Positions 7,234 through 32,977 of a stretch of DNA of 35,439 nucleotides are shown piece by piece. How positions within the stretch are numbered: the stretch's first letter is position 1; each line of letters opens with the position of its first letter. Origin of the DNA: Candidatus Zambryskibacteria bacterium RIFCSPLOWO2_01_FULL_35_19 (GTDB lineage Bacteria > Patescibacteriota > Minisyncoccia > Phycocordibacterales > WO2-35-19); contig MHWA01000014.1 in NCBI GenBank assembly GCA_001825335.1, positions 1 through 35,439 on the forward strand, given 5' to 3'. The position numbers were made by a program, and so were the translations under genes. A model generated the notes under the pieces. The model ran no database searches. It was not told the DNA's origin and saw only the letters and a program-made list of their open reading frames with translations.

Positions 7234-7234
7234 T

Positions 7235-11636: not shown

Positions 11637-12610
11637 AGACTAAAATTTTTGATTGAGTAAAGGTCTTCATCTATTGGGATATCCTCTTCTTTTTTTATTT
11701 CTTCAGGAGTCCTATCGTCAAGACCAGCACTTTCAGTCGGCTCCCCGACTACTTCGTTCGTCGGAGTCCCTTGTTGAAGCATATTTAAAATATCTACCAA
11801 ATCATCATTTGAGAAAAAATCTATCATCAATTTGCCCCCTTTTTCTTTCTTTTCAATTTTTACTCTAGTACCCAAACTTTCAGTAAACTTTTCTTCTAAA
11901 GAACAAATTTCTGGGTCCAGATGAGAATCAAATTTTCGAACTCTTTCTATGGCGATTTTACGAGCAGCTTGTTCAGCATCACGAACATTCATTTTGTACA
12001 AGATAATATCTTTAAAGAGAACCTTTTGTTCTTCTGGTCTTTCTATAAGCATAAGAAGAGGTCTCGTGTGTCCTTCATTTATCTTCCCTTCAGATAAAGC
12101 ATTGAGCATATCTTCTGGTAAATCTAAAATGCGCAAAGAATTGCTGACATAGACCCTGCTCTTGCCAATCTTTTGAGCCACTTGATGATGCTTAAATCCA
12201 AATTTTTCTGTTAACTTTTTAAAAGCTCTGGCTCTTTCTACTGGATTAAGATCTTCTCTTTGTACATTTTCAATAATAGCTAGCTCTAATTTCATTAAAT
12301 CATCGGCATTTTCATTACCCTCACCCGTTCGAATAATGACTGGCACTTGAGAAAGTCCAGCAATTTTGGCAGCTCGCAAACGACGCTCGCCTGCTATAAG
12401 CTCATATTCTACTCCCAAACCGTCATCTCTCTCAAACTCCTTTCGAGTAACTACCAATGCTTGAAGCACTCCATACTGCTTGATAGAGTCCGCTAAAGCC
12501 CTTAGAGCATCTTCATCAAATTCGCGACGCGGTTGAAAAGGATTTGGCTTTATTTTATCCAGTTCTACCCAAAATATTGAATTTTGATAAAAATTTGATG
12601 TATTAGACAT
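11633..12610 (-). CDS. parB: ParB/Spo0J chromosome partitioning protein
   Basis: ParB N-terminal box (LVVTRK...YELIAGERRLRAAKIAGL) and an HTH region (HHQVAQKIGKSRVYVSNSLRIL). Confidence 0.9.
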   Translation of the reverse strand: MSNTSNFYQNSIFWVELDKIKPNPFQPRREFDEDALRALADSIKQYGVLQALVVTRKEFERDDGLGVEYELIAGERRLRAAKIAGLSQVPVIIRTGEGNENADDLMKLELAIIENVQREDLNPVERARAFKKLTEKFGFKHHQVAQKIGKSRVYVSNSLRILDLPEDMLNALSEGKINEGHTRPLLMLIERPEEQKVLFKDIILYKMNVRDAEQAARKIAIERVRKFDSHLDPEICSLEEKFTESLGTRVKIEKKEKGGKLMIDFFSNDDLVDILNMLQQGTPTNEVVGEPTESAGLDDRTPEEIKKEEDIPIDEDLYSIKNFSL

Positions 12611-12696
12611 TGTGAACTTATTTTACATTAAAACAATTTAAAATAAAAGCTGAGTATTTTGATTTTTGGGGATTTTGAGGTATATTTTATCTACAA

Positions 12697-12778
12697 GCCA
12701 GAGTGATGAAATTGGTAAACATGCGCGACTCAAAATCGCGTGCCGCAAGGTTTGTGGGTTCAAGTCCCACCTCTGGCA
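12697..12778 (+). tRNA. tRNA-Leu (anticodon CAA)
   Basis: Manual fold: acceptor GCCAGAG/CTCTGGC, anticodon arm GCGCGA-CTCAAAA-TCGCG, long variable arm, T-arm GTGGG-TTCAAGT-CCCAC, discriminator A. Confidence 0.85.
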
Positions 12779-12779
12779 C

Positions 12780-13007
12780 ATGCAAAATAAAATCAAAAAA
12801 GGAATCTACAAACATTTTAAAGGTAAGGAGTATGAGGTGATTGATGTTGGGACACATTCAGAAACTTTAGAACCACACGTAGTTTATCAAGCGCTTTATG
12901 GAGAACAAAAAATTTGGGTCCGCCCGCTTTCAATATTTCTAGAAGAAGTAGACAAACCAGAAATAAATTATAAAGGGCAGAGATTTACTTATGTCAGAGA
13001 AAAATAA
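12780..13007 (+). CDS. DUF1653-family small protein
   Basis: The 75-aa product YKHFKGKEYEVIDVGTHSETLEPHVVYQALYGEQKIWVRPLSIF matches my recollection of the DUF1653 pattern. The start is set at ATG 12780 because the ORF-track extension overlaps tRNA-Leu. Confidence 0.65.
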   Translation: MQNKIKKGIYKHFKGKEYEVIDVGTHSETLEPHVVYQALYGEQKIWVRPLSIFLEEVDKPEINYKGQRFTYVREK

Positions 13008-13965
13008 TAAACCAAAAATTATTGTAATCCTCGGGCCAACCGCTAGTGGCAAAAGTGATGTTGCTGTAGAGCTTGCCCTTCGACTTCGCTCAGGACAAGC
13101 CAAAAAATTTGGAACTAAAGGGGCAGAGGTTATTTCTGCTGATTCAAGACAGGTATATAAAGGACTTGATATTGGCACTGGTAAAATTACTAAAAAAGAA
13201 ATGAAAGGAATAAAGCATCACCTGCTTGATGTGATAAGTCCCCGCAAACAATTTTCTGCTTCCGATTTTGTCCGTATAACAAATGACGCGATCGCGCAGA
13301 TTGTTATATCTGGGAAGATACCCATTGTCTGTGGTGGTACTGGATTTTATATTGATGCTTTGCTTGGTGAAAAACAACTTGCCGAAGCGCCACCAAATGA
13401 AAAATTGAGAGCTCAACTTGAAAAGAAAAGTGTTGAAGAATTATTTAAAATATTAAAAAAACTAGACCCAGAAAGAGCCAAAAATATAGACGCCAAAAAT
13501 GGAAGAAGATTAGTTAGAGCAATTGAGATATGTGAAGCTTTGGGCCCCAACTCCGCTTCTCGCTTCGCTCAAGCTACGCTGGGCAAGAAAGTCCCCTCAA
13601 AATACGATGTCATTAAAATAGGAATAAAAACAGAAGAAAAAGAATTAAAAAATAGGATAAATAAAAGAATAGAAAAGTGGTTTAAAATGGGACTTTTGAA
13701 AGAAGTCAGAGATTTACATCAAAAAGGTCTCTCTTGGAAACGAATGTCAGAGCTTGGACTTGAATATAAGATAGTGGCCAATCATCTCCAAAAAAAGATT
13801 TCAAAAGAAGAAATGATAGAGAGGATGCAGATAGAAACTTGGCAATACGCTAAACGTCAAAAACAGTGGTTTAAAGATAAAAACATCATTTGGCTTCCAT
13901 CAAAAATAAATTTAGTAGAAAAAAAAGTAAAAAGATTTTTAGAAGGCGGGCCCACGAGGATTTGA
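12991..13965 (+). CDS. miaA: tRNA dimethylallyltransferase
   Basis: P-loop ILGPTASGKS, ISADSRQVYKGLDIGTGKIT and GGTGFYIDAL. It carries two GC-rich in-frame patches (see findings). The 3' end overlaps tRNA-Trp on the opposite strand. Confidence 0.9.
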   Translation: MSEKNNKPKIIVILGPTASGKSDVAVELALRLRSGQAKKFGTKGAEVISADSRQVYKGLDIGTGKITKKEMKGIKHHLLDVISPRKQFSASDFVRITNDAIAQIVISGKIPIVCGGTGFYIDALLGEKQLAEAPPNEKLRAQLEKKSVEELFKILKKLDPERAKNIDAKNGRRLVRAIEICEALGPNSASRFAQATLGKKVPSKYDVIKIGIKTEEKELKNRINKRIEKWFKMGLLKEVRDLHQKGLSWKRMSELGLEYKIVANHLQKKISKEEMIERMQIETWQYAKRQKQWFKDKNIIWLPSKINLVEKKVKRFLEGGPTRI

Positions 13966-14017
13966 ACCCCGGTCGCTCCTTTTGGAGAGGAGAATTCTAC
14001 CACTGAACTATAGGCCC
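13947..14017 (-). tRNA. tRNA-Trp (anticodon CCA)
   Basis: The reverse complement reads GGGCCTATAGTTCAGTGGTAGAATTCTCCTCTCCAAAAGGAGCGACCGGGGTTCAAATCCTCGTGGGCCCG. Anticodon loop is CTCCAAA and the discriminator is G. Confidence 0.85.
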
Positions 14018-14033
14018 AACGAGTTAAATATAC

Positions 14034-14058
14034 ACAAAAAAAACGGGTTTGTCCCGTT
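14034..14058 (-). terminator. Rho-independent terminator downstream of rpmG
   Basis: On the minus strand, aacggg-acaaa-cccgtt is followed by T8. A T-run on the plus side also allows bidirectional function. Confidence 0.55.
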
Positions 14059-14062
14059 CTTT

Positions 14063-14239
14063 TTATTTTTTTATTTTTTTTAAAGGTAGTTTAGCTTCAC
14101 TAAAAACCACTCTCTTACGGAGCTTTTTAGAGTATTTTTTGAGTTCTATTTTACGCTCTACTTTACGCTTATTTTTGCGTGTTAAATAAACCTCGCCGGT
14201 TTTTTTGTTTACTAGAGCTATAAGTTGATCTTGTGACAT
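14063..14239 (-). CDS. rpmG: 50S ribosomal protein L33, 58 aa, absent from the ORF track
   Basis: Manual translation gives MSQDQLIALVNKKTGEVYLTRKNKRKVERKIELKKYSKKLRKRVVFSEAKLPLKKIKK. The Y-x-T-x-KNKR...LELKKY...LRK..x.F.E.K signature is that of L33. Confidence 0.8.
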   Translation of the reverse strand: MSQDQLIALVNKKTGEVYLTRKNKRKVERKIELKKYSKKLRKRVVFSEAKLPLKKIKK

Positions 14240-14329
14240 TCCATTAGAAATTAAATATTAATATAGTAAATTTTGTCTAAAATTACGCTTATATTTATAG
14301 CATATCCCACCAAATATTACAATAAATTT

Positions 14330-15175
14330 CTAGCGGGACAAGTTATTTATATAAGCCTTAAACTTAAGCATCAAATCTTTAGTCATTACTCCAACTTTAC
14401 CATCTGCCACCTGAAAATCATCAACTTTGACAATAGGGACAATATCTTTAAATGAGGAAGTAATAAAAATTTCATCAGCCATCTTTAGTTCATCTTGATA
14501 GACAATCCTTTCTTCTATTTTATATCCGGCTTCAGTAGCAAGCTCTAATGTCACTTTTTTAGTTATACCCCCTAAGACATTCTCGGCTGGGGTAATCAAA
14601 GCCTTATCTTTAACAAGCAAAATGTTGCTGGTAGTGCATTCCAAAACTTCTCCATCATTTATATAAAGCACTTCCACCGCCTTTTCTCCATTTTTCCATT
14701 CTTGCAAATTGACTGCTTTAATATAGTTTGTAGTCTTATACTCTGGCATTTCACGCTGATGGTTGTAAGTTAAAATATTAGCTCCTCTTTCAAAATATTC
14801 TTCTGGTAAAGGCACAAAGGGTTCAGCTGTAATATAAAAAGTAGCATTTTCAAAATCATATTCAATTCCATTTATGGTTTTCCCGCCAGTAAGTATCATC
14901 CTTATGGTGGCCCTTTCTTTTATGTCAGATTTTTTTATTATCTCAACAATTTTTTTCTCACAGGAATCTTCAGTAATAGGGATATTTAATCCAAGAGCAT
15001 GAGCTCCATCTGTAAATCTCTGCCAATGGTCAGCAAAACGAAAAGGCCTGCCGTTAAAGGCAGCCAACCCATCATAAATACCATAACCACGCAAAAGACC
15101 TATGTCTTCTATACCAACCTTGGCATCCTCTAAAGGCATTATCTCTCCATTCAAGAAACAATATTTTTTGTTCAT
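14330..15175 (-). CDS. Class IV (fold type IV) PLP aminotransferase, either branched-chain or D-amino-acid aminotransferase-like
   Basis: 281 aa with LLRGYGIYDG, RFxDHWxRF, a KTTNY region and GITK...ER. The layout is typical of the IlvE/Dat/PabC family. Substrate cannot be assigned by eye. Confidence 0.75.
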   Translation of the reverse strand: MNKKYCFLNGEIMPLEDAKVGIEDIGLLRGYGIYDGLAAFNGRPFRFADHWQRFTDGAHALGLNIPITEDSCEKKIVEIIKKSDIKERATIRMILTGGKTINGIEYDFENATFYITAEPFVPLPEEYFERGANILTYNHQREMPEYKTTNYIKAVNLQEWKNGEKAVEVLYINDGEVLECTTSNILLVKDKALITPAENVLGGITKKVTLELATEAGYKIEERIVYQDELKMADEIFITSSFKDIVPIVKVDDFQVADGKVGVMTKDLMLKFKAYINNLSR

Positions 15176-15189
15176 TTTATAATATTATA

Positions 15190-15233
15190 ATAAAAAAAAG
15201 AAAATCGCCACAGTCCGTAAACTGCGACGATTT
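15190..15233 (-). terminator. Rho-independent terminator
   Basis: The minus strand reads aaatcgtcgcagt-ttacgg-actgtggcgattt followed by a T-rich run. Confidence 0.5.
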
Positions 15234-15251
15234 AAAGTGTAGACGTAGCCA

Positions 15252-15524
15252 TCAAGTCACCCAAGGTTCCACATATCTGATACTTATATGGGAATCGTTA
15301 AGACTCCCAAAATGAACAAGTTCTCCACTCTTTTGTCGATTAAGTGGATCTTTAATCCATTCAAGAGATACGTGTTCGTCTGTAACATGACGAACTTTAA
15401 ATGGACCCCTCCCGTAAGAGTGCTCCCATCTTCTTAAACGTTCATTTACATCCGGGTCTTTGTCAGTTGGTTTCAACCCTACCAAGGACCCGGCAATAAT
15501 TTCTGAGCTCATTTCTGTGTTCAT
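15252..15524 (-). CDS. Hypothetical small soluble protein of about 90 aa
   Basis: ORF with a GGGAG SD 8 nt upstream of ATG 15524. The ORF-track start at 15569 would run through the palindrome and intergenic region. I recognise no family. Confidence 0.5.
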   Translation of the reverse strand: MNTEMSSEIIAGSLVGLKPTDKDPDVNERLRRWEHSYGRGPFKVRHVTDEHVSLEWIKDPLNRQKSGELVHFGSLNDSHISIRYVEPWVT

Positions 15525-15545
15525 AAATAACTCCCAACTAAATAT

Positions 15546-15563
15546 TATCACATATATGATATA
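15546..15563. promoter_or_regulatory. AT-rich dyad (tatca-catata-tgata), a candidate operator
   Basis: It shares the 13-mer catatatgatata with the perfect palindrome at 17096-17113. It lies between the HTH-MurA-like gene stop and the start of the downstream small gene. Confidence 0.35.
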
Positions 15564-15569
15564 TTGCAA

Positions 15570-17087
15570 CTATATACCTGTGATTTTCTCAATAGAGGCT
15601 CCTATACTATTTAACCTCTCTACTACATCCTCATAGCCACGATTTATAGAATAGACATTGCGAAGTATAGATACTCCTGGAGCTGCTAACATAGCAATAA
15701 GAATAATCATCGCTGGACGTAGAGCGGCTGGGCAAACTACTTGAGCAGGTTTTAGTTTTGTTGGTCCTGTTATAAAAGCCCTATGTGGATCAACTAGAGT
15801 AACGCTGGCTCCTAATTTATTTAATTCTGTAAAGTATATGGCTCTGTTTTCCCACATCCAATCATGAATGAGAGTAGTCCCCTTAGCTTGAGTAGCAATT
15901 GGTACAAAAAATGGAAGATTATCAGAATTAATACCCGGATAAGGTTGAGCATGCACTTTATCTTTTAAAGCATACAGTTTTGAAGGAAATATAGTTATGT
16001 CCACCAATTTTGTATTTTTGTTTAAAGCCAAATACTCTTTAGAAAATTCATATTTTAAACCCATAGTTTTTAACTTAGTCAACTCTAGGGCCAAAAAATC
16101 TATTGGACATCTTTCTACTTTTAATTCAGAATTTGTAGTAATGGCAGCACTTATAAACATCATTGATTCAATTGGATCTTCACTATTAAAATATTCAATT
16201 CTTTGATTTATTTCCTTAATACCGTAAACAGTCAGACTGGTAGTACCGATACCTTCTATTTTTACTCCCAATTTTTGGAGAAAGAAACAAACTTCTTGAA
16301 CTTGATAATTTGGTGGAGCAAAGGATATTTTAGTTATACCAGGGGTTAGGGCGGCAGTTATAATAGCATTTTCAGATGCAGTATCACTTGCCTCATACAT
16401 CACAATATTAGCTACTTTTATAGACTTGTTGTTAATAACGTATTTATTATTTAGAGTTTTTATACGAGCACCAAAATCTTCAAACATATAACGATGAGCA
16501 GAAATAGTCCTTTCACCCATTTTGCAACCACCACTATGAAGTAATTCAAAACTCTTAAAATTATGCAACATAGCAGGGATGAGCATCAAACTAGATCTTA
16601 CACTTGCAACAGAAGGATGGGTTAATCCTTTTTTATTAAATTTCTTAGGTGGGTTTATTTCTAAAGTTTGTTTTTCAATCCATTTATTTTTTACCCCTAA
16701 AGCAGAGAATATCTCTAACATTCTATTTACTTCTTCTATTCTTGGAATACCATGCAGTATGGTCGTGCTTTTATTTAAAAGAGAGGCACATAAAAGTCCC
16801 ATGGCCCCATTTTTAGAAGGATTTGTTTTTATACTTCCATGAAGTTTTTTACCTCCATTTATTTTAAAATCTATAGAATCAGAAAGAGATACTATCTTAT
16901 GATCTAGTGCTTCCCCTATTTTTAAAAGCTCACCAGCAGTTAAATTTTGACCACCATTCTCTATCCTAGCTACCGCACTTTGAGAAGTATTAAGTATTTT
17001 AGCTAGTTCACCCTGAGTCAAAGAGCGTTTTTCACGTAACTTTTTTATAAAAACGCCTATAGCTTTCTGATTATCCACCTTTTTCAT
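15570..17087 (-). CDS. XRE-family HTH domain fused to a MurA-like enolpyruvyl transferase (EPSP synthase fold)
   Basis: The N-terminal ~65 aa is LTQGELAKILNTSQSAVARIENGGQN (HTH_3/XRE). The rest aligns by eye to MurA: SKNGAM (K22 region), SGGCKMGERTISAH (Cys115 loop retained) and the C-terminal NRGYEDVVERLNSIGASI. Confidence 0.75.
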   Translation of the reverse strand: MKKVDNQKAIGVFIKKLREKRSLTQGELAKILNTSQSAVARIENGGQNLTAGELLKIGEALDHKIVSLSDSIDFKINGGKKLHGSIKTNPSKNGAMGLLCASLLNKSTTILHGIPRIEEVNRMLEIFSALGVKNKWIEKQTLEINPPKKFNKKGLTHPSVASVRSSLMLIPAMLHNFKSFELLHSGGCKMGERTISAHRYMFEDFGARIKTLNNKYVINNKSIKVANIVMYEASDTASENAIITAALTPGITKISFAPPNYQVQEVCFFLQKLGVKIEGIGTTSLTVYGIKEINQRIEYFNSEDPIESMMFISAAITTNSELKVERCPIDFLALELTKLKTMGLKYEFSKEYLALNKNTKLVDITIFPSKLYALKDKVHAQPYPGINSDNLPFFVPIATQAKGTTLIHDWMWENRAIYFTELNKLGASVTLVDPHRAFITGPTKLKPAQVVCPAALRPAMIILIAMLAAPGVSILRNVYSINRGYEDVVERLNSIGASIEKITGI

Positions 17088-17781: not shown

Positions 17782-20496
17782 TTAAACCCCTACCCCAGCA
17801 GAGAGAGTCTCTAGAATAGAAGACCCGATAATAGCGCCACGACGGCCTTTTTTGATATCAAAGACAAATTCACCTACATCAGTTTTGGATGGATCATTTT
17901 TGACAGAAACAGACACTACTCCCCCTTTCAATATTTCTTTAGAGATGATAAAAGAAGCTACTTGATTTAGTATTTTATTTTGAATCACCCTTTTCAAAGG
18001 CCTTGCGCCGTATTGAGGGTTGTATCCTTCTTTGGCTAAATATTCATAAACTTCATCAGTTAATTCTAATGAAATCTCTTTAATAGCCAATCTCTCTCTT
18101 ACCAAATCAATCTGAATTTTAACAATCTCTCTTATAGCTTCCATAGGTAATATATCAAAGATAACAATATCATCTACTCTGTTTAAAAATTCTGGTCTGA
18201 AGAAATCTTTCATAGCTTCCATCACTTTTTCTTTAACTCCGGCATATTCACCCCCTTTTATATCTCTATCACCGAAGCCCATTTTTTCCATCTTGTCTAT
18301 ATAATTGGCCCCAATGTTTGAGGTCATAATAATAATAGTATTTTTGAAGTTAACAGTTCGGCCTTTAGAATCAGTTAGCCGACCGTTGTCCAAAACTTGA
18401 AGGAAAACGTTAAAAACTTCTGGATGAGCTTTTTCAATTTCATCAAACAAAACAATAGAGTATGGACGATGTCTAACCATCTCCGTTAAACCACCACCAT
18501 CATCAAAACCGACATAACCAGGGGGAGCGCCTATCAGTTTAGAAACAGAGTGCTTCTCCATAAATTCTGACATATCCACCCGAATCAAGGCTTTTTCATC
18601 ATCAAACATAAATTCAGCCAAAGCTTTAGTCAGCTCTGTTTTGCCAACTCCAGTTGGACCTAGAAAAATAAAAGAGCCAATTGGTTTGTTTGGGTCAGAA
18701 ATGCCGGCACGAGAGCGTTTGATGGTATCAGCTATTTTTTTGACCGCCTCATCTTGACCTACTATGCGTTTCTTCAATTCATCTTCCATCCTAGAAAGTT
18801 TTTCGGCTTCTTCTTCAAGCATTCTAGAAACAGGAATACCAGTCCACTTGGCTACTATATTGGCTATATCATTTTCTGTTATTTCTTCTTTTAAGATACG
18901 ACGAGAACTTTGAAGTTTTTTGAGTTTTTTCATATTGGCGTCAAGACTTTTTTCTAAAGCAGGAATCTGTCCATAACGAACTTCAGCTGCTTTGCCAAGA
19001 TCTACTCTAGCTTCAGCTTCTTCAGCTTCTAAACGAGCAAATTCAAGCTCTTTTTTAATCCTTTTTATTTCTCCAACACTTTCTTTTTCATTTTTCCATT
19101 TCAAATCAATTTCTCTAGTTTTTTCTCTCAAGTCAGCAATTTCTTTTTCAATTTCTTGAAGACGAGTTTTGGCTTTACTATTTTTACCTTTGGCTTCTTT
19201 TTTAAGAGCTTCTTTTTCAATTTCAAGTTTTATCACTTTTGAGTTAGTTTCTTGAAGCACTGGTGGCATATTTTCAAGCGAGATTTTTAAATGACTCGAA
19301 GCTTCATCTATAAGGTCAACTGCTTTATCTGGCAAAAATCTATCAGCAATATATCTAGCAGAAAGTACCACCGCCGCTTTAATAGCGTCATCAGTTATAC
19401 GAACCCCGTGATAGAGTTCATATTTTTCTTTTAATCCGCGCAATATAGTTGTGGCGTCATCTATTGATGGCTCACTTATAAAGACCGATTGAAAACGACG
19501 AGTCAAAGCTGGGTCTTTTTCTATATGTTTTTGATATTCTTTGATGGTAGTAGCTCCGATGGCTCGCAATTCCCCTCTGGAAAGAGGAGGTTTCAACATA
19601 TTGGAGGCATCAAGAGAACCTTCGGCTGATCCAGCACCAACAATAGTATGAATTTCATCTATAAAAAGTATAATCTTACCGTCTGATTTTTCTATTTCTT
19701 TTATGATATTTTTGAGTCTTTCTTCAAATTCACCTCTGTATTTGGTCCCCGCCACTAAAAGCCCCAAATCAAGAGATACTATTTCTTTATCTTTTAAAGA
19801 CTCTGGTGCATTACCAGAAGCAACTCTCATAGCCAAACCTTCAGCGATAGCGGTTTTACCTACACCCGCTTCTCCAATTAAGATAGGATTATTTTTGGTC
19901 CGACGAGAAAGAATCTGGATAATACGAGAAATTTCTTCATCTCTACCAATGACTGGGTCAAGTTTGTTTTCGCGAGCCAATTTGGTAAGAGAGCGAGTAT
20001 ACTTTAGGATGTTTTTATTTTTACGATAAGTTTTGGTCTCTGGCATTCTTCCTTGTTTTATTTCTTGAATCAAAAACAAAACTTTTTCTTTTTCAATTTT
20101 GAAACGAGAGAGAGTGTCTTTAGCTAAACTTGGAATATCAAGACAAGCAATAAAAATATGTTCAGTAGAAACAAATTCATCATTCATAGATTTCGCTACT
20201 TTTGAAGAATGTTCAATGATTTGAGCCAACTCCGGAGTAAGAAAAATCTGATAAGAGGGGGACATAGTGCCACCAGAAGCAGTGCCTTCCATTGCTTCAA
20301 AAATAGAATCAGTCAAAAGAATAGTATCTACTTCCATTTTATCCAAAATAGAAGCCACCATACTTTCTTCTTGTAAAATAAGTGCGGCCAAAAGATGAAG
20401 TGGTTCTACGTGATTTTGACTACGTTCGATAACCAGCTCGTGAGCTTTTCTGATGACTTCTTTGGCTTTAGTTGTAAATTGATTAAATGGTGTCAT
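17782..20496 (-). CDS. clpB: Chaperone ClpB (Hsp100 disaggregase)
   Basis: 904 aa with a Clp_N domain, NBD1 ([23 protein letters not shown]), a long coiled-coil M-domain and NBD2 ([24 protein letters not shown]). Confidence 0.95.
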
Positions 20497-25105: not shown

Positions 25106-25177
25106 GGCCACGTAGCCAAGTAGTAAGGCATTCCTCTGCAAAAGGAATATACGCGAGTGCAATTCTCGCCGTGGCCT
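25106..25177 (+). tRNA. tRNA-Cys (anticodon GCA)
   Basis: Acceptor GGCCACG/CGTGGCC, anticodon arm TTCCT-CTGCAAA-AGGAA, T-arm GCGAG/CTCGC, discriminator T (U73, typical for Cys). Confidence 0.8.
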
Positions 25178-25213
25178 CATTTGTTAAGAAATAAAATAAC
25201 TTGACAAATAATT

Positions 25214-25300
25214 GCTCGGGTGGTGGAATTGGTATACACGAAGGACTTAAAATCCTTTGGTCGCAAGACCTTGCGGGTTCAACTCCCGCCCCGAGCACCA
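25214..25300 (+). tRNA. tRNA-Leu (anticodon TAA), with CCA encoded
   Basis: Acceptor GCTCGGG/CCCGAGC, anticodon arm AAGGA-CTTAAAA-TCCTT, long variable arm, 3' ACCA. Confidence 0.85.
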
Positions 25301-25302
25301 GC

Positions 25303-25375
25303 CCGCTCATAGCTCAGTTGGTAGAGCAGCTCCCTCTTAAGGAGAATGTCCTAGGTTCGAATCCTAGTGAGCGGA
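25303..25375 (+). tRNA. tRNA-Lys (anticodon CTT)
   Basis: Acceptor CCGCTCA/TGAGCGG, D-arm GCTC-AGTTGGTA-GAGC, anticodon loop CTCTTAA, T-arm CTAGG-TTCGAAT-CCTAG. It starts 2 nt after the preceding CCA. Confidence 0.8.
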
Positions 25376-25426
25376 CATGATAGAAAAATATGAACTTGCT
25401 TCATATTATGTTATATTATTTCAGTC

Positions 25427-25507
25427 GGGCAAGTGGTGGAATGGTAGACACGCTAGCCTTAGGAGCTAGTGCCGCAAGGCGTGGAGGTTCAAGTCCTCTC
25501 TTGCCCA
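25427..25507 (+). tRNA. tRNA-Leu (anticodon TAG)
   Basis: Acceptor GGGCAAG/CTTGCCC, anticodon arm CTAGC-CTTAGGA-GCTAG, long variable arm, T-arm GGAGG-TTCAAGT-CCTCT. Confidence 0.85.
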
Positions 25508-25627
25508 CAAAATTACACAATATTTTTTAAAATAATTCTATACTAAACGCTTACTTGTCCCGCCGTAGCTTTATGCAAAGGAGGAGCGTCCTAATATTGT
25601 GTTTGTTGTAATAAATGATATAATGCA

Positions 25628-26260: not shown

Positions 26261-27445
26261 ATGAATTGGCAACTAATGTTTGCTGTGATGTTGGCGACAC
26301 TTGTTGTTCTCACATTCCCTGCCGTATTAATTCTGTCACCTTTCATTGTTAGAAAGATGGCAGAATTGGAGTGGTTTTTTGCCACAACGGCAGAGGGTCA
26401 AGCACGACCAGTAATCTGGAATAAGAAATTTCGGAAGTTCATCATGAACTATGCTGGACATATATTCCAAGGTGAGCTATTCAAAGATCACCGCAATGCT
26501 TCTTTTAGATTTGATCCGCAAGAAGCTGAGTACTGGGAATTGATCCATGCTAGCCAGTGGCCTCGCAAAAACAAGACCGTTATTGAAAAATTGTTGAGGT
26601 TGTTTGAGGGTGTATATCTGATCGGTGTCCCACCATTTGCCGAAATTCAACGGTATAGGATGACCTGGATAGAGTGGGGTTATCCAAAGAAATCTGATGG
26701 TACGGTTTCTACTACCAAAGCACCAATCTCGCACGATGAGCCAATTAGCCATGTTTTAGTACAAAGTGATGTGTATTTCGTCAAGGTGCTGTCGGCAGAA
26801 ACCAAGGAAGGAATTCCAGTTGATGTCAGTTTTCTATTGACGATTTCCATCACCAATCCCTACAAGGCCCTGTATAGGGTCCAGCACTGGCTAGAGGCTG
26901 TCACAAACCAAACAGAGGGTACCACTAGAGTATACATCGGTACCCAAAACATTAGAGAGTTGTTTGCTCCACCTGAAGGGGATCCCAGTACGGCTCTTCC
27001 TGTTGGCACAATAGGAGCACTTTCTGAAACTTCCTCTGAAGAGCTAGCTAAAGCTTTACACAGCAGGTTGGAAAACTTCAAAGAACGATTTGGGGTTAAT
27101 GTAGAACTGGTGCAAATCCAATCGATTGAACCAGCAGGAGATGCAGCCGCCAAATATAGAGAGCTTCTGACTAGAAAATACGAAGCTGAACAAGAAGCTG
27201 AAAGAGTGCGAATTGCCGCAGATGCAGAGGCATATCGCATTGAAACAGAAGCTAAGGCAAAGCAGAAGGCGGCAGAAATGGTTGTTGGTGCGGTGTCTAG
27301 TATCCCTAACGGTCCTGACATCTTTCACTCACAACAAGTTGGCGCACTACAAAACCTGCGAACCTATGTTGAAGGAGATCGTCAAGGCAAGAGCAAAAAA
27401 GGTAAAAAACCTGTCATTGCCATTCCGACAGATAGTGGAGAATAA
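26261..27445 (+). CDS. SPFH/band-7 (stomatin-prohibitin-flotillin-HflK/C) family membrane protein
   Basis: N-terminal TM helix, SPFH-like core (VDVSFLLTISITNPYKALYRV...) and the characteristic Ala/Glu-rich coiled coil (YEAEQEAERVRIAADAEAYRIETEAKAKQKAAE). The SD gaaggagga is strong. The gene lies in a GC-richer segment. Confidence 0.65.
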   Translation: MNWQLMFAVMLATLVVLTFPAVLILSPFIVRKMAELEWFFATTAEGQARPVIWNKKFRKFIMNYAGHIFQGELFKDHRNASFRFDPQEAEYWELIHASQWPRKNKTVIEKLLRLFEGVYLIGVPPFAEIQRYRMTWIEWGYPKKSDGTVSTTKAPISHDEPISHVLVQSDVYFVKVLSAETKEGIPVDVSFLLTISITNPYKALYRVQHWLEAVTNQTEGTTRVYIGTQNIRELFAPPEGDPSTALPVGTIGALSETSSEELAKALHSRLENFKERFGVNVELVQIQSIEPAGDAAAKYRELLTRKYEAEQEAERVRIAADAEAYRIETEAKAKQKAAEMVVGAVSSIPNGPDIFHSQQVGALQNLRTYVEGDRQGKSKKGKKPVIAIPTDSGE

Positions 27446-27469
27446 TCTTTCTTTACACTTGATTCGTAT

Positions 27470-27495
27470 AGCCGAGGTAACCCCTCGGCTTTTTG
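27470..27495 (+). terminator. Rho-independent terminator
   Basis: agccgagg-taacc-cctcggct followed by TTTT. Confidence 0.65.
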
Positions 27496-27524
27496 TTGAC
27501 TTTATTTTATAAATATGATACAAT
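27496..27524 (+). promoter_or_regulatory. Sigma70-type promoter (TTGACT-17 nt-TACAAT)
   Basis: TTGACT at 27496-27501 and TACAAT at 27519-27524, followed by a gaggagg SD and ATG 27546. Confidence 0.55.
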
Positions 27525-27545
27525 AGATAGAGGAGGCTCCTTATC

Positions 27546-28703
27546 ATGCTTGATCAGATAGTTCCGATTTTGATCGGTTTTTTGTCCATGGTTTTGGTAG
27601 TAGGAGGTATTGTTCTTCTACTCATCAAAAACCTAAAACCCACCTCTTCTTCCGAAAAAAACAAAGACATAAAGACAAAAAAGGAAGAAGAAAGTAGATG
27701 GTCATGGCTGACGCATACTAAGTTGCTGATAGTGTATGGACTAGCTATCTTCAACTTGGTGGTCTGGGCAATGATTCCCTGGTTTTGGGATATACTTGCT
27801 TACAAGTGGTATACTTGGTTAATCTTCAATATTGGGTTTTGGACAATTCTTTATTTTCTCACTGTTAAAGTGAAAGATAAGGATGGAAAAGAAACTGAAT
27901 CAGACCATCCGACGGCCAAAAGATTAGCAAAAATAATCACCGCAATGCTGATATTGGGACTTGCTACCATCACTTGGAAATATTTCCAAGAAAAAGGTTG
28001 GCCTTTTGGAAGTTCTAACGAAGCAACTATCACCCCCGGTTTCTCTCCACAATTGGGAGGGACACAAGCCGGAAGTGTCAGCTATACCCTAGCAGTCCTC
28101 GATGGCTGCGAGACTGGTACCGGCGCTCCCGGAAGCGGTAGGCATTTTCTTGAGGACGGAATAACTCCAGTCCGAAATCCGCAGGATGCCCCTTGGGGCA
28201 CCGGTGCGGTTGGAAAGTGGCAGATTCATATCGGTGATCCGGACGTTAGCGAGGAGCTCAAACTCCTTGAAGCCGAAATGAAACTTGATGGGAGTTTGGG
28301 TCCAGACGAATCGCTCGATGTGGAGCGGAGCGAAGCCCACAATCGGGCAGCCGCCGAGTACTTGTACAAGAAGTACGGCACAGCCCCATGGACCGCTTCA
28401 GTCGCCTGCTGGGGATCATTGGTAACCAGCACTGGGACTCTGATAGTCACATTGGAAGCCCCAGTTGGAGAATGGAGCAACTACTTCTCGTTCCCAAACA
28501 ACCACCGATATGATTTTGGGCGGGTCAGTCCGGAAAAAGAAGAGAAGTATCGCGCAGAATTCACCACCCAAGACGGGAAGGTGATTCTGGGAGAATTTCC
28601 GTCGGAGGAATTTCTCCGCGTACCCAAAGCAATAAAGATGCGGGTGCAATCGTTGGAGAAAGAGCCGGTGATCATCAAAATCACTCTCACTCCGAAAAGT
28701 TAG
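27546..28703 (+). CDS. Polytopic membrane protein with a lysozyme-like (SLT/Rpf-type transglycosylase-like) domain and a C-terminal beta-rich domain
   Basis: About 4-5 TM helices lie in aa 1-150. Then LDGCETGTG...GAVGKWQIHIG...EAHNRAAAEYLYKKYGTAPWTASVACW resembles the CES-G...G(L/V)xQ(I/F)...AWP.C pattern of Rpf/SLT-type domains. Recognition is by eye only. Confidence 0.45.
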   Translation: MLDQIVPILIGFLSMVLVVGGIVLLLIKNLKPTSSSEKNKDIKTKKEEESRWSWLTHTKLLIVYGLAIFNLVVWAMIPWFWDILAYKWYTWLIFNIGFWTILYFLTVKVKDKDGKETESDHPTAKRLAKIITAMLILGLATITWKYFQEKGWPFGSSNEATITPGFSPQLGGTQAGSVSYTLAVLDGCETGTGAPGSGRHFLEDGITPVRNPQDAPWGTGAVGKWQIHIGDPDVSEELKLLEAEMKLDGSLGPDESLDVERSEAHNRAAAEYLYKKYGTAPWTASVACWGSLVTSTGTLIVTLEAPVGEWSNYFSFPNNHRYDFGRVSPEKEEKYRAEFTTQDGKVILGEFPSEEFLRVPKAIKMRVQSLEKEPVIIKITLTPKS

Positions 28704-28799: not shown

Positions 28800-29078
28800 T
28801 TAACAAAAAAATAGTTCACAGGGAATATCAAAAGTAGCCAAAACAATTCTTAAAATGCCATAAACAGAAAACATTATAAAAAGCCCAATTACTCCATACA
28901 TAACATTGGTCTTTTTTTTATCTAAATCATTACCATCGGCTCCCCAAATCATCTGCACTATCCCATAAAATAAATATATAGTGGCAACAACAAAACCAAG
29001 CACTATGAGTGGATTTAATATCAAAATAGCTATCTGACCTAAAAGATCTGTTACAGCTGTTATTGTAGCGGCTAACAT
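28800..29078 (-). CDS. VirB2/TrbC-like small pilin paralog 1, with no signal peptide
   Basis: 92 aa with a two-helix hairpin: hydrophobic helix, GADGNDLDKKKTN loop, then VMYGVIGLFIMFSVYGIL. The architecture matches the six upstream paralogs. Confidence 0.6.
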   Translation of the reverse strand: MLAATITAVTDLLGQIAILILNPLIVLGFVVATIYLFYGIVQMIWGADGNDLDKKKTNVMYGVIGLFIMFSVYGILRIVLATFDIPCELFFC

Positions 29079-29142
29079 AACTACATTTTATTTTTAATAC
29101 TCAAAAATTGCAAGATATAAAAGTTTATATCTCTTCTTAAAA

Positions 29143-29190
29143 AAAATACAAAAATAAAACCGCCTTAAAGCAGTTTTATTTTTGTATTTT
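29143..29190. terminator. 18-bp perfect AT-rich hairpin inside the pilin array, an internal terminator or attenuator
   Basis: aaaatacaaaaataaaac-cgccttaaagca-gttttatttttgtatttt. It lies between the stop of paralog 2 (29200) and the start of paralog 1 (29078). Confidence 0.5.
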
Positions 29191-29199
29191 AGAGCAAGT

Positions 29200-29553
29200 T
29201 TATTCAACTTCATTAGGAATAAGATTGCCAACATCAGGAGCACCTGTATCTGTGCCTATTCCTACATTTTCACCGATAAATCGAACCAATCCCCAGACAG
29301 AGGCCATCACAAAGAGAGCCACCACTCCCCAAATCATTGTCTTTTTGGCTTGTTCCTTGTCATGATCTGCGCCAAAAATGTATTTAACCAAACCATAAAA
29401 GAATCCAAGAATAGCGAGGGCAAAAACAATTGGTATGATTATATCCACAATACCACCCAAATCTTCAATTAAACCTCTTAGTGCAGTTAAACCTTGAGCA
29501 AAAGAGACAAGAGGGAAAGCCAAAGCTCCAACAATTAACGCTAATTTTTTCAT
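29200..29553 (-). CDS. VirB2/TrbC-like small pilin paralog 2
   Basis: Signal peptide ending SFAQ|G, then IIPIVFALAILGFFYGLVKYIFGADHDKEQAKKTMIWGVVALFVMASVWGLV. Confidence 0.65.
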   Translation of the reverse strand: MKKLALIVGALAFPLVSFAQGLTALRGLIEDLGGIVDIIIPIVFALAILGFFYGLVKYIFGADHDKEQAKKTMIWGVVALFVMASVWGLVRFIGENVGIGTDTGAPDVGNLIPNEVE

Positions 29554-29666
29554 ATAATTTTAAATTAATAATTAATAATTAAATAAACGACCATTTTTAA
29601 TTTGCTTTATAATAATATCATTTTTATACTTAATTTCAACCAAAAGTAATCCACAACGTAATATAA

Positions 29667-30065
29667 TTAAGGCGAAGCGGCATTCCAGGCTTCAGTATTA
29701 TCAGCTCCACCATCCCCACCAATAGTTGGTATAGGTATAGAATTTGGTCCAGAGCCACCCAAAAGCTCACCTTGAAGGAAAGCGACGAGTCCCCAGACAG
29801 AGGCCATCACAAAGAGAGCTACTATACCCCACACCATTACTTTTTTGCCTTCATCTTTTTCACTACCAGCAGAGCGTATATACTTGGCAATACCCCAGAA
29901 AAAGAAAAGTAGGGCTAGAATAAAAGCAAGCGGGACCAGCATATCTGTCACAATATATTTAGCTTCCCAAAATAATTTTCCAGTCTCCTTTAGTTGGGCA
30001 AAAGAAAAAACGGGAAATAAAACAAATACGGAAGATAAAATGATTTTATAAATTTTATTTAACAT
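29667..30065 (-). CDS. VirB2/TrbC-like small pilin paralog 3
   Basis: Signal peptide ending SFAQ|L, then WGIAKYIRSAGSEKDEGKKVMVWGIVALFVMASVWGLV. It shares a 30-nt identical tract with paralog 2. Confidence 0.65.
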   Translation of the reverse strand: MLNKIYKIILSSVFVLFPVFSFAQLKETGKLFWEAKYIVTDMLVPLAFILALLFFFWGIAKYIRSAGSEKDEGKKVMVWGIVALFVMASVWGLVAFLQGELLGGSGPNSIPIPTIGGDGGADNTEAWNAASP

Positions 30066-30083
30066 AAGTTTTAAATATTAATA

Positions 30084-30443
30084 TTAATAAATTTTAGTGG
30101 TAATTATATCTCTGGGAATTGCTGGATTTTCAACTTCTGGAATACCAAGCTCACTTTGGATAAAGGTAATTATACCCCAAATTGAAAAAGCTACAAAGAG
30201 ACCGACGATACCCCAAATCATAATCTTCTTTCCTTCTTCGGCTCCTTTTTCATCACCAGCACTGGTCCTTATGTATTTGGCTACTCCCCAGAAAAAATAA
30301 AAGAGAGCTAAAGCAAAAGCAAGTGGTATAAGCACTTCGCTAACTATGCCAGAGGCCGCATCTATAAGGTCAATAACTCCAGCGGCAGATGCAAATAATG
30401 GAAAAAAGAGAAGTATTACTATTATTTTTGATATTTTTATCAT
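30084..30443 (-). CDS. VirB2/TrbC-like small pilin paralog 4
   Basis: Signal peptide ending ASAA|G, then WGVAKYIRTSAGDEKGAEEGKKIMIWGIVGLFVAFSIWGII. Confidence 0.65.
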   Translation of the reverse strand: MIKISKIIVILLFFPLFASAAGVIDLIDAASGIVSEVLIPLAFALALFYFFWGVAKYIRTSAGDEKGAEEGKKIMIWGIVGLFVAFSIWGIITFIQSELGIPEVENPAIPRDIITTKIY

Positions 30444-30446
30444 ATA

Positions 30447-30719
30447 TTAAAAATGAATTTGAGGAATAATCACTCCTCCTCTAAAACCAAATTCACCCAT
30501 AGTAAAAGAAATTATACCCCAAATACTTACCAAAATAAGTAATCCTACAATCCCCCAGATAATTAAATTTTTGCTATCTTTTATTTCTTTTTCACTACCG
30601 GCAGATTTTATAAACTTGACTATACCCAAAACAAATACAAGAAAGGCCACCGTTCCTAAAAATGGTATTATTCTAAGCCCTATATTTATAAACAAACTTA
30701 TAATCGCTGTTAAATCCAT
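30447..30719 (-). CDS. VirB2/TrbC-like small pilin paralog 5
   Basis: LGIVKFIKSAGSEKEIKDSKNLIIWGIVGLLILVSIWGII. It is separated from its neighbours by only 3-nt and 2-nt gaps. Confidence 0.6.
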   Translation of the reverse strand: MDLTAIISLFINIGLRIIPFLGTVAFLVFVLGIVKFIKSAGSEKEIKDSKNLIIWGIVGLLILVSIWGIISFTMGEFGFRGGVIIPQIHF

Positions 30720-30721
30720 TT

Positions 30722-31156
30722 TTATACTCTTAATTGACTAATAGTTTTGCCGATGGCTTGCGATATAATCCAAGCACCTAAAAGTATGGCCGCACCTATA
30801 ACCGCCCAGAGTAGAGCATCCTTTGCTTTAGTTATTTGTGCCGCATCACCTCTAGCCGTTACAAAAAGAAATCCAGCATACATAACCATTACCACAGCTA
30901 CCACACTACCGATAGGTATTAAAATATCTTTAATAATGGTGGTTATCAAACCTTCAATGGTATTTTCTTTAAATGGATTTTTTATTTCTATTGATGAATT
31001 TATTGGGGGGACAGAACCAGTAGTCCCTCCACCATCGCCTCCCGTATCACCTCCACCATCGCCATTTGCGGCCAACACAAACATCGGCATTACTAAAACT
31101 ATGACAACTACAATTGGAATTAAAATTTTAAAAAAACTTTTTGAAAATTTAAACAT
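30722..31156 (-). CDS. VirB2/TrbC-like small pilin paralog 6, with a Gly/Asp-rich N-terminal extension
   Basis: Signal/TM segment, then GDGGGDTGGDGGGTTG, then YAGFLFVTARGDAAQITKAKDALLWAVIGAAILLGAWII. Confidence 0.6.
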   Translation of the reverse strand: MFKFSKSFFKILIPIVVVIVLVMPMFVLAANGDGGGDTGGDGGGTTGSVPPINSSIEIKNPFKENTIEGLITTIIKDILIPIGSVVAVVMVMYAGFLFVTARGDAAQITKAKDALLWAVIGAAILLGAWIISQAIGKTISQLRV

Positions 31157-31181
31157 AATTTTATATATAAAAATTGATTAA

Positions 31182-31589
31182 TTATTTGACTCCTTGGACT
31201 GGCACTGCATCTTTAAAACCATTTTTATCACTCAAAAGAGCATTTGTGATAGTGGTTACAATAATCCAAGCTGATAAAATAAAAACAAAACCAATAAAAA
31301 CTTTCTTCATTGTATTTATAGACTCTGATCTTTTGCCTGGATTATCGCCATGTATCATCATCTTTATACCAGCCCAAGCAAAAACACCCGCCGCTATCGG
31401 GACTGAAATCTTTATAATCCAATCTATTACATTATTTATCAGTATCAATAAATCATCATAACCGCATTCGTCACTAAGACCACCATCGCAAGGTATAAAA
31501 CCACCTTGAGCAGAAACTAAAAAAGGTATCATAATAAAAAGAAAAAATAACGAAAAAATTAAAATATTTTTGATTAATGGTTTTTTCAT
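31182..31589 (-). CDS. VirB2/TrbC-like small pilin paralog 7, with a Cys-containing N-terminal region
   Basis: Signal peptide ending VSAQ|G, then CDGGLSDEC, then WAGIKMMIHGDNPGKRSESINTMKKVFIGFVFILSAWII. Its start overlaps the upstream SBP stop by 4 nt. Confidence 0.6.
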   Translation of the reverse strand: MKKPLIKNILIFSLFFLFIMIPFLVSAQGGFIPCDGGLSDECGYDDLLILINNVIDWIIKISVPIAAGVFAWAGIKMMIHGDNPGKRSESINTMKKVFIGFVFILSAWIIVTTITNALLSDKNGFKDAVPVQGVK

Positions 31590-32890
31590 TTTAATAATAA
31601 GGTAGAGAGTTCTCTATGAGCTCGATTGACAGCTTCTCCCGTCCTAGCTCTACCGCTTGTGATTGATTCTATCATATTTCTAAAGACGATATCACTTTCT
31701 CCTTTGGACGGATCAAGCCAAGCTTTGGCTCGGATAGCACTATCATAGAAAACACTCTCATATGAATTGATTTGTTTCTGTCCTAAAAGATCTCTTCTTG
31801 CTGGTGGCAATCTTAAAGCTTTACTAAAAGCCATCGCCCCTTCTTTGCCAGTTAAAATAGAAATAACAGAAAAAGCGGCGCTTATCTTTTTAGAAGCTTT
31901 GGTGATAGCAAAAGAATTAAAATTAGCATAAGAGACATTAACTCCGCCCTCCCTAGAAATAGGCACTGATGCCACATCAAAATTTAGATTTGGATTTTTA
32001 ATTTGAAGATTGCTTATTTCATTAGCAAAACCAAAATACAAAGCCAAGTCACCTCCTAAAAAGTAGTTGGTAGAATTATTTAAAGAACGATTCCAAGAGT
32101 ATGAGGATTTGGCTGGATTGCTAAATTCGGTATAAAAATTGACTGCCGCTTCAGCTGGAATGGTTGATTTGTTGAAAGAGTCAGCAAAGACGCTTAAAGC
32201 TTTGTTGTTACTGCCCCAGATAGTAACAGGCGTCCCCGCTTGCATTGCCAAGTTTATAACAATTTCTTTGGCATGAGAGATGTTTCCAAATTCACCAAAA
32301 GCTACCAAGCTTCTTGATATATTTAAAGCACCATCTTTTTTAGATATCTGATTGGCTAAATTATAAAACTCATCCCAATATTTTGGAGGTTCAGTGATTT
32401 TAACTTCAGTAAAGATAGACCTGTTCCAATACATAACCAGTGGGTTGACCGTTATGGGCAAAGCTAAAAATCCTTCTGGCGCCATATAAATTTCAGCTCC
32501 TTCTATAAAAGAGTCTTTAAATTGCCTAGTAGTAAAAGCTTCATACGGAATAGCAAATATTTTGTTGCGGTGCTTGAGTATCTTTTCACTTCCCAACATA
32601 AAGATATCTGGACCATTACCAGAAGCTAAAGCTTCTATAAAACTAGCATCAAATTCTTCTTCAGTTTTCTGAACATATTGAAGAGTAAATTCTTTGCTTT
32701 GGTGAAGAGACGTTGCTTTGATAGCTTCATTGAAAGTGGTTTGAGGCATAGTGCCCCATATCTCTATTGAGATTGCATTTCCAAGACTCCCTCTATAAGA
32801 AGAAAATATTATCACTCCTACGATTAGAAATACTCCAAAAATCCCAGTCAAAACCAATTGAAACTTTGTCATACTTATATTATATAACAT
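31586..32890 (-). CDS. Membrane-anchored extracellular solute-binding protein (ABC SBP family 1-like), orphan
   Basis: N-terminal TM anchor followed by an SBP_bac_1-like layout (IEIWGTMP..., GNGPDIFMLGS, LPITVNPLVMYWNR, YWDEF). No permease or ATPase genes are adjacent. An alternative start is at 32872. Confidence 0.65.
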   Translation of the reverse strand: MLYNISMTKFQLVLTGIFGVFLIVGVIIFSSYRGSLGNAISIEIWGTMPQTTFNEAIKATSLHQSKEFTLQYVQKTEEEFDASFIEALASGNGPDIFMLGSEKILKHRNKIFAIPYEAFTTRQFKDSFIEGAEIYMAPEGFLALPITVNPLVMYWNRSIFTEVKITEPPKYWDEFYNLANQISKKDGALNISRSLVAFGEFGNISHAKEIVINLAMQAGTPVTIWGSNNKALSVFADSFNKSTIPAEAAVNFYTEFSNPAKSSYSWNRSLNNSTNYFLGGDLALYFGFANEISNLQIKNPNLNFDVASVPISREGGVNVSYANFNSFAITKASKKISAAFSVISILTGKEGAMAFSKALRLPPARRDLLGQKQINSYESVFYDSAIRAKAWLDPSKGESDIVFRNMIESITSGRARTGEAVNRAHRELSTLLLK

Positions 32891-32977
32891 TCAAATCAAA
32901 ACCGTCTCACTCAAACTGTGAACTACCATTATCCACAATTACCGAGATCGGCATCTTCTTGGCAATATGTTTAGAAA

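Follow-up and report, generated by a model that had tools for sequence, protein, structure and literature searches.

We investigated a stretch of DNA of 35,439 nucleotides (the window) from contig MHWA01000014.1 of the Candidatus Zambryskibacteria bacterium named RIFCSPLOWO2_01_FULL_35_19, in which eight consecutive minus-strand genes at positions 28800-32890 combine a membrane-anchored solute-binding protein (SBP) with seven small proteins of the pilin family of type IV secretion systems (T4SS). The seven small genes were named pil1 to pil7 by their order of transcription after the SBP gene. The host is represented by a groundwater metagenome-assembled genome (MAG) and belongs to the class Paceibacteria of the Patescibacteria, or Candidate Phyla Radiation; its SBP is 99% identical to that of PCXM01000019.1, a groundwater Candidatus Zambryskibacteria MAG. 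By comparison with related loci we found that the SBP gene, pil1 and pil2 form an invariant core, and that zero to six further pilins carrying a W-G motif are the variable part. We lean slightly towards the reading that the locus encodes a heteromeric VirB2-type pilus or conduit, in which a major W-G subunit is accompanied by two specialised ones, produced together with a glycan-binding protein that is tethered to the membrane at the base. Tandem arrays of VirB2-like pilins in Patescibacteria have already been published (PMC12102498, PMC10633639). The partnership of SBP and pilins, detached from virB4, recurs in more than 100 related species and seems to be undescribed: a full-text literature search did not find the combination of Patescibacteria, solute-binding protein and pilin, and the accessible part of the survey of such arrays (PMC12102498) makes no mention of solute-binding proteins.

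By profile search the seven small genes are T4SS_pilin proteins of the VirB2/TrbC superfamily. All of them matched the Pfam family PF18895 (T4SS_pilin) with E-values between 7e-16 and 6e-4, and five passed its gathering cut-off of 26.6 bits with scores of 32.6-58.4 bits. The cut-off of PF04956 (TrbC/VirB2), 27.9 bits, was reached by pil1 and pil2, and the other five genes gave no match to it. Six of the seven paralogues also matched NF045849, a pilin-like conjugal transfer protein of Mycoplasma integrative and conjugative elements (ICE), weakly (E 1e-3 to 2e-8; 18-34 bits, all under the cut-off of 40 bits). An earlier note, made from the letters of the window alone, had described seven minus-strand open reading frames (ORFs) of 90-144 aa as VirB2/TrbC-like pilins coupled to an orphan SBP and had pointed to these two Pfam families; the ORFs, of 90, 92, 117, 119, 132, 135 and 144 aa, and the family assignment both hold. 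Pairwise identity among the paralogues is 15-53%. The seven consecutive genes form an array as defined in the survey, that is, 2-11 pilins in tandem or with one non-pilin gene between them.

Five of the seven proteins were resolved in a hydropathy scan into a signal peptide ending in AxA or SxAQ and a pair of hydrophobic helices with a short charged loop between them. The two others, at 30447-30719 (pil3) and 28800-29078 (pil7), are a two-helix hairpin alone, so that the signal peptide ascribed by the note to most paralogues is right for five and wrong for these two. The note had also counted three paralogues with the full I/V-W-G...W-G motif in the second helix; there are four, those beginning at 29200, 29667 and 30084 and in addition 30447-30719 (IIWGIVGLLILVSIWG). 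All of the decorations that it listed (Gly/Asp tract, Cys pair, Pro/Gly tails) are present.

The first two pilins are distinct from the rest. The gene pil1 (31182..31589, minus strand like all eight genes; 135 aa) encodes a signal peptide (..VSA|Q), an N-terminal segment with a Cys pair (C34, C42) and the two-helix hairpin. It matched PF18895 at 7e-16 and scored 27.9 bits with TrbC, exactly the cut-off. In its AlphaFold2 model the signal-peptide helix spans residues 3-28 and the hairpin helices residues 44-79 and 84-119. Of 85 distinct orthologue sequences, 83 have two or more Cys beyond the signal peptide, and the termini of the orthologues are strongly conserved. The 144-aa product of pil2 (30722..31156) carries a signal peptide, a Gly/Asp-rich low-complexity N-terminal extension, an I-x-NPF-K motif and the hairpin, and matched PF18895 at 5e-10 and TrbC with 29.1 bits, above the cut-off. 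Its orthologues show a low-complexity stretch of variable composition followed by a conserved NPF/L-K motif.

Four W-G pilins follow. The product of pil3 (30447..30719, 90 aa), 2 nt after pil2, has a W-G hairpin of two hydrophobic segments and no signal peptide. Signal peptides precede the hairpin in pil4 (30084..30443, 119 aa; ..ASA|A, Pro-rich tail, PF18895 at 1.4e-9), in pil5 (29667..30065, 132 aa; ..SFA|Q, Gly/Pro-rich tail, PF18895 at 8e-8) and in pil6 (29200..29553, 117 aa; PF18895 at 1e-11), the public homologues of which are 59-97% identical among the matches listed. The last gene, pil7 (28800..29078, 92 aa), encodes a short hairpin-only pilin without signal peptide and with a C-terminal CxxxxxC; it takes the final position in most arrays, and its Cys pair is limited to a Zambryski-like clade (13 of 85).

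The SBP gene (31586..32890) encodes a protein of the MalE fold. Its longest ORF has 434 aa, with a single N-terminal hydrophobic segment in the hydropathy scan, taken as one transmembrane (TM) helix at about residues 8-36. In an alignment of 120 distinct homologues the columns are occupied from Met7 onward, and therefore the protein probably starts at M7 (32872) with 428 aa; the ORF and the anchor reported in the note stand, and its start codon probably does not. The protein matched the Pfam families SBP_bac_8 (2e-15, 57.7 bits) and SBP_bac_1 (5e-13, 50.2 bits) and nearly matches the family-1 signature around P145-E162. In the AlphaFold2 model (pLDDT 88) a helix spans residues 9-34 and is connected to a bilobed domain by a linker of about 5 residues. 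With Foldseek, oligosaccharide-binding proteins of ATP-binding cassette (ABC) transporters and maltose-binding protein came out on top (E about 1e-21, TM-score 0.6-0.8, 12-17% identity). Many Trp, Tyr, Asp, Asn and Arg residues are invariant in the alignment, which suggests a retained carbohydrate-type site.

The TM helix is conserved as strongly as the globular domain. Four of its residues, F10, F18, G25 and F29, are invariant in the 120 sequences, and by their spacing they were computed to fall on one face of the helix, in an arc of about 100 degrees. We took this as a sign of a specific partner within the membrane. As the globular domain begins about 5 residues from the TM helix, the SBP sits on the membrane of its own cell and is unlikely to be a distal adhesin; the place in the filament that the note had given it as an adhesin is thus not supported. 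A prepilin-type (class III) signal was considered for the SBP and rejected by inspection: the N-terminus MTKFQLVLTG.. has neither a Gly/Ala(-1) site nor Glu(+5).

To follow the locus in relatives, two scans of contigs, with one genome per species, yielded 153 loci, 119 of them with distinct SBP genes. Their sources are Zambryski-, Taylor-, Campbell- and Wolfebacteria as well as unnamed Paceibacteria, and SBP identity reaches as low as 43%. Among the distinct Paceibacteria loci, 110 had 600 nt or more of sequence downstream; a pilin followed the SBP in all 110, and in 101 of them the two genes overlapped or were at most 30 nt apart. Of 104 loci, 99 had a pilin of the pil1 type in first place and 99 had one of the pil2 type in second place, and both types were almost never found further down. 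The gene order is therefore fixed: SBP, pil1 with its Cys pair, pil2 with its low-complexity N-terminus, then the W-G pilins. In the complete Campbellbacteria genome CP011215.1 the SBP gene, pil1 and pil2 stand without any W-G pilin. The copy-number comparison that the note had proposed thus gave a constant core and a changing remainder.

On the other side of the SBP the arrangement is looser. The gene gyrA was always present upstream, with a methyltransferase gene of about 175 aa in between at 63 loci, an IS200-like gene at the junction in some, and a gap of more than 1 kb in 14. Insertions are thus tolerated before the SBP gene and were never found between it and pil1, which argues for functional coupling beyond general synteny. 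This bears on the possibility that the SBP is an ordinary ABC binding protein with permease and ATPase encoded elsewhere, its adjacency to the pilins being inherited synteny of streamlined genomes without functional link. In its fold and its Pfam families the SBP agrees with sugar ABC binding proteins, the homologues are automatically annotated as UgpB or multiple-sugar SBPs, and the housekeeping neighbours gyrA, rbfA and infB are just as syntenic. However, the tight junction is kept down to the lowest SBP identity sampled, the insertions are one-sided, the order of pil1 and pil2 after the SBP is fixed, and an anchor with invariant residues is atypical for a passive tether. Moreover, no ABC permease or ATPase adjoins the SBP in the window or at the 119 distinct related loci. 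As the note had stated, the SBP belongs to no local ABC transporter, and we concluded that the ordinary-transporter explanation is distinctly unlikely.

The identity of the pilins was then compared position by position in 21 fully collinear loci, each from a different species, with the genes of the window as reference. Orthologues at each array position retained 49-66% identity to their counterpart in the window, near the 65% of the SBP; GyrA retained 84%. This points to a fixed heteromeric set and not a diversifying one, and by this comparison the paralogues are ancient, conserved by position and not hypervariable. The variable subunits proposed in the note were not borne out. Spelled out, that reading would make the array a set of interchangeable, diversifying pilins, with the SBP as distal adhesin, in the sense of antigenic or host-range variation, which has been proposed for the VirB2 paralogues of Bartonella and Anaplasma. 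The low identity within the array and the differing termini of the paralogues are in line with this, and the survey raises the same idea for Patescibacteria arrays (PMC12102498). Nevertheless, the orthologue groups are position-specific over 21 species, the order and number of the pilins are stable, and the SBP is held at the membrane without a stalk, so that we find diversification for variation very improbable.

A pilin that may display large modules was met in a homologous array of another Patescibacterium (locus L061). There a protein of 2170 aa (9747-16259, plus strand) has a signal peptide, Ig, cadherin, PKD and FN3 domains, a Pro/Thr/Gly linker and a C-terminal pilin hairpin of the pil2 type. 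By its domain order it is a predicted pilin-anchored giant adhesin. It fits the N-out topology expected for these pilins and indicates that a pil2-type pilin can display large surface modules.

The arrangement of the genes divides the array into a packed block and two genes that stand apart. The SBP stop and the pil1 start overlap as ATGA (31586-31589), and this overlap recurs in many relatives. A public copy of pil1 (P0121) is annotated with an alternative start, M20; we preferred the overlapping start because it provides a canonical signal peptide and because of the recurring overlap. Gaps of 2 nt (30719/30722) and 3 nt (30443/30447) follow, as the note had observed together with the 4-nt overlap, and pil5, 18 nt after pil4, is the last gene of the block. 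From the SBP through pil5 the median gaps are 4-24 nt in collinear relatives. In the window pil6 and pil7 are preceded by spacers of 113 and 121 nt that contain promoter-like sites, and both spacers are conserved in collinear relatives (median about 99 nt before pil6, about 85 nt before pil7).

In the control region of pil6 (29586..29655, minus strand) the motif TGTGGATTA (29647-29655) lies upstream of a promoter-like site, TTGAAA-16-TATTAT with TG (29612-29639; a 10/12 match with extended -10, the best in the region), and GGTCGTT within ATGGTCGTT (29586-29594) forms a leader motif. The TGTGGATTA and GGTCGTT motifs each occur exactly once in the window. GGTCGTT was present in the pil6 spacer of 22 of 22 collinear loci, and in 33 of 108 arrays it lay between genes, in each case ahead of the penultimate or last pilin. 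A reading of ATGGTCGTT as an upstream ORF was rejected, as GGTCGTT is conserved and the ATG is not. Separately, a copy of TGTGGATTA and GGTCGTT, fused to each other and with one mismatch, was noticed upstream of the SBP gene (32921-32937). After pil6 and before pil7 lies a terminator-like hairpin (29144..29189, minus strand) with a 20-bp stem and a T-run, and pil7 has a promoter-like site of its own (29085-29113, minus strand). Thus pil6 is apparently monocistronic, and pil6 and pil7 look like separate transcription units; the coupling of all seven pilins to the SBP asserted in the note holds for the first five. To judge from these signals pil6, and perhaps pil7, is probably expressed separately and strongly, which makes pil6 the candidate major subunit. 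Among RNA data for the locus itself, the search turned up groundwater runs that are unrelated and have 0.00 of the sequence words in common with it. In metatranscriptomes of cultured Paceibacteria, T4SS pilins are among the most expressed genes for secreted proteins (PMC10936435).

Several results weigh against a T4SS-type pilus or conduit. Two pilins score below the PF18895 cut-off, pil3 by 0.3 bits (26.3 bits) and pil7 clearly (20.3 bits). A profile search of the pilins against PDB sequences returned spurious PsaF matches and no VirB2 or TraA, and Foldseek with the pil1 model gave a best E-value of 1.9 and no link to solved VirB2 or TraA; both searches were treated as uninformative because short hairpins are poorly discriminated. 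As the note had stated, no VirB4, VirB6, VirD4 or PilB-type pilus ATPase gene was found in the 35-kb window. A Walker A screen of unlabelled ORFs of at least 450 aa detected no VirB4-like ORF within 10 kb on either side of 80 related loci; the double-Walker-A ORFs that it did find, which were not scanned, are presumed to be UvrA-like. For VirB4 in whole genomes we relied on the published Table S1 of PMC12102498: it lists VirB4 as 'No' for GCA_002771075.1, the 440-kb incomplete draft MAG assigned to the organism, and one other carrier of the locus is likewise listed without VirB4. The neighbourhood from gyrA to infB is syntenic throughout the class, and conserved adjacency is therefore weaker evidence than usual. 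Finally, to our knowledge Patescibacteria have never been seen to bear a filament of this type.

In the same table VirB4 is 'Yes' for 22 of 25 RIF Zambryskibacteria, and among genomes with the locus that we cross-referenced to it VirB4 is present in seven of nine, including the complete CP011215.1. By this listing the VirB4 elsewhere in the genome, for which the note had suggested a search, is there in most of the cross-referenced genomes and absent from the organism's own draft MAG. Since VirB4 is absent from the window and listed as absent from this MAG, the dependence on a T4SS was derived from relatives, and for the organism itself it is plausible. The note had named three observations as counting against its interpretation, namely pilins without profile similarity to T4SS pilins, a complete genome without a cognate secretion ATPase, and an SBP belonging to a distant transporter with its adjacency not conserved; none of them was made outright.

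The same absence of T4SS genes nearby would suit a membrane platform, a bindosome-like uptake module in which hairpin proteins and SBP form an envelope complex that positions the SBP without any extended T4SS pilus. The pilins may then substitute for the missing ABC permease, by analogy to the Bas system of Sulfolobus. The precedent is the bindosome itself (PMC3047682), in which the surface deployment of a sugar-binding protein needs co-encoded small pilin-like proteins, a likeness to the locus studied here. The short tether of the SBP, its TM helix with a conserved face, the persistence of SBP, pil1 and pil2 without W-G pilins in a complete genome, the core-genomic position beside gyrA and the undetected similarity to solved VirB2 pilins all agree with such a module. 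On the other hand, the sole family homology detectable is to VirB2/TrbC-type pilins and not to type IV pilins or transporters, and a two-helix hairpin is no known translocation pathway. The giant adhesin fusion indicates surface display over transport, and related arrays of Saccharimonadia lie inside a T4SS cluster without an SBP. Bas also differs in its parts (PMC3047682): its small proteins resemble type IV pilins, its SBP carries a class III signal peptide, and an ATPase and a membrane protein are dedicated to it, whereas the present locus has VirB2-type pilins, a plain TM helix on the SBP and no ATPase. We judged the platform explanation unlikely.

We therefore return to the heteromeric pilus or conduit, for which the following sequence of events is proposed. 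The locus would be the pilin set of the Patescibacterial T4SS, a monoderm, MPF-FATA-derived system, in its Paceibacteria form. The five pilins with signal peptides would probably be inserted via Sec, and pil3 and pil7 probably via YidC. All pilins are expected to adopt an N-out/C-out topology with the charged loop in the cytoplasm, and a VirB4/VirB6 machine encoded elsewhere would extract them into a pilus or conduit, where the variable N- and C-terminal decorations would face outward. The bulk subunit would come from the separately promoted W-G pilin pil6 and perhaps also from pil7. In contrast, pil1, with a disulfide knob, and pil2, with a disordered or adhesin-bearing N-terminus, would be specialised subunits of low copy number, stoichiometric with the SBP. 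The SBP may lie flat on the membrane, with the conserved face of its TM helix touching either the pilins or the site of assembly. There it would bind a glycan-type ligand and report or capture host-derived material at the base of the apparatus; alternatively, it could serve as a scaffold for the incorporation of pil1 and pil2. The filament, the ligand of the SBP and the dependence on a T4SS are the parts of this scheme that we infer.

Among known systems the closest are the arrays of other Patescibacteria. The survey by Quinonero-Coronel et al. 2025 (PMC12102498) counted 441 VirB2-like arrays, each of 2-11 genes, across 383 assemblies of Patescibacteria; of 1948 assemblies, 1135 have pilins close to virB4, which in Paceibacteria is typically near dnaA. 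In Southlakia epibionticum an array of six pilins within a T4SS cluster is essential, and no family-1 SBP is present at its locus (Wang et al. 2023, PMC10633639). The arrays of the survey and of S. epibionticum ML1 (SEML1_0014-0019) share with the one studied here PF18895, with or without PF04956, and consist of 2-11 divergent tandem hairpin pilins in a monoderm with a reduced genome. Identity within the array is low in both cases, with a mean of about 25% in the survey against the range given above for the window. The ML1 array is located inside a virB4/virB6 cluster without an SBP, whereas the array of the window is led by the SBP, lies by gyrA and is more than 10 kb away from T4SS genes.

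The pilins of the VirB2/TrbC/TraA type (Agrobacterium T-pilus, RP4, F) have the signal peptide, the two helices and the charged loop in common with the present ones, two of which attain the TrbC Pfam cut-off. Unlike them, the present pilins showed no similarity to solved pilins, belong to a monoderm host and have no adjacent VirB3-B11 genes. The Mycoplasma ICE protein Mbov_0395/MMCAP2_0565 is likewise a small VirB2-like hairpin, from an MPF-FATA-type system that is wall-less or monoderm; its gene stands singly on a mobile element, whereas the pilins of the window form a chromosomal array. Compared with MalE-type family 1 SBPs, the SBP has the same fold and shares SBP_bac_1 and SBP_bac_8, but it differs in its low identity to them, in an uncleaved TM anchor with invariant residues and in lacking a permease or ATPase partner at the locus in more than 100 genomes. 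In Agrobacterium the periplasmic sugar-binding protein ChvE couples host sugars via VirA to the VirB T4SS without transport. ChvE would thus resemble the SBP as a sugar-binding protein acting without transport alongside a T4SS. ChvE is, however, a soluble protein from an ABC operon, and its effect on transcription runs through a histidine kinase; no kinase is linked to the locus of the window.

Convergent with the array, two genes at 26261-28703 (plus strand) encode an SPFH/Band-7 protein (394 aa) and a multi-TM protein of 385 aa. The pair is a conserved neighbour in most related loci, and its G+C content is 0.41-0.48 against about 0.34 elsewhere. A VirB1-like role of these proteins was considered and rejected, as no match to a lytic enzyme was found in Pfam, NCBIfam, PHROG or PDB. 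An ORF at 7409-7792 (plus strand) contains ..AEAGQDLIEYALMAGFVAVAAGA.., which resembles the Flp/Tad prepilin motif G|xxxxEY, with Pfam Flp_Fap at no better than E=0.1; it sits in a G+C-richer, ORF-poor stretch (6936-8012). An IS200/Y1-transposase-like gene occupies 6298-6936 (plus strand), and a homologue stands exactly between gyrA and the SBP gene in relatives (listed: L005, L006, L007, L010, L024, L046 and L063).

The rest of the window holds housekeeping genes: two ClpB-like genes, FtsQ-like, SerRS, DprA, TopA, RelA/SpoT, ParB, MiaA, a MurA-family gene, IF2, RbfA, tRNAs and GyrA. The enzyme of the MurA/EPSP-synthase family (15570-17087, minus strand) is unusual in being fused at its N-terminus to an XRE-type helix-turn-helix domain (residues 14-62). 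Of the ClpB-like genes, that at 17782-20496 (minus strand) is canonical, with Clp_N and two AAA modules; in the other (287-2719, minus strand) the C-terminal AAA_2/D2-small part alone was recognised, and the N-terminal 540 aa had no Pfam match. Four tRNA genes (Cys-GCA, Leu-TAA, Lys-CTT and Leu-TAG) are found at 25106-25508 (plus strand), followed by about 750 nt without an ORF of at least 90 aa. The longest ORFs of SerRS (4014-5339, minus strand) and DprA (5179-6258, plus strand) overlap head-to-head by 161 nt, so that one of the annotated starts, or both, probably lies too far upstream.

As far as we know, T4SS and pilin arrays of Patescibacteria, essential in the single species tested, yet have no known substrate, filament or function. 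Should the SBP prove to be an ordinary transporter component, the locus would be one more pilin array of the published class. A bolder option, which we rate as rather unlikely, is that SBP, pil1 and pil2 constitute an uptake or sensing device, a MalE-fold receptor wired by its TM helix to VirB2-type pilins and the T4SS-like conduit and not to an ABC permease. If this were true, Paceibacteria would capture host-derived glycans or glycerophospho-headgroups at cell-cell contact, and the essential Patescibacterial T4SS would gain an import-related function. The fixed order of SBP, pil1, pil2 and major pilin predicts a defined heteromeric architecture and not the antigenic-variation model proposed for Bartonella and Anaplasma. 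An SBP that is locked stoichiometrically and evolutionarily to two specific pilins across the class would offer an experimentally tractable handle on these systems.

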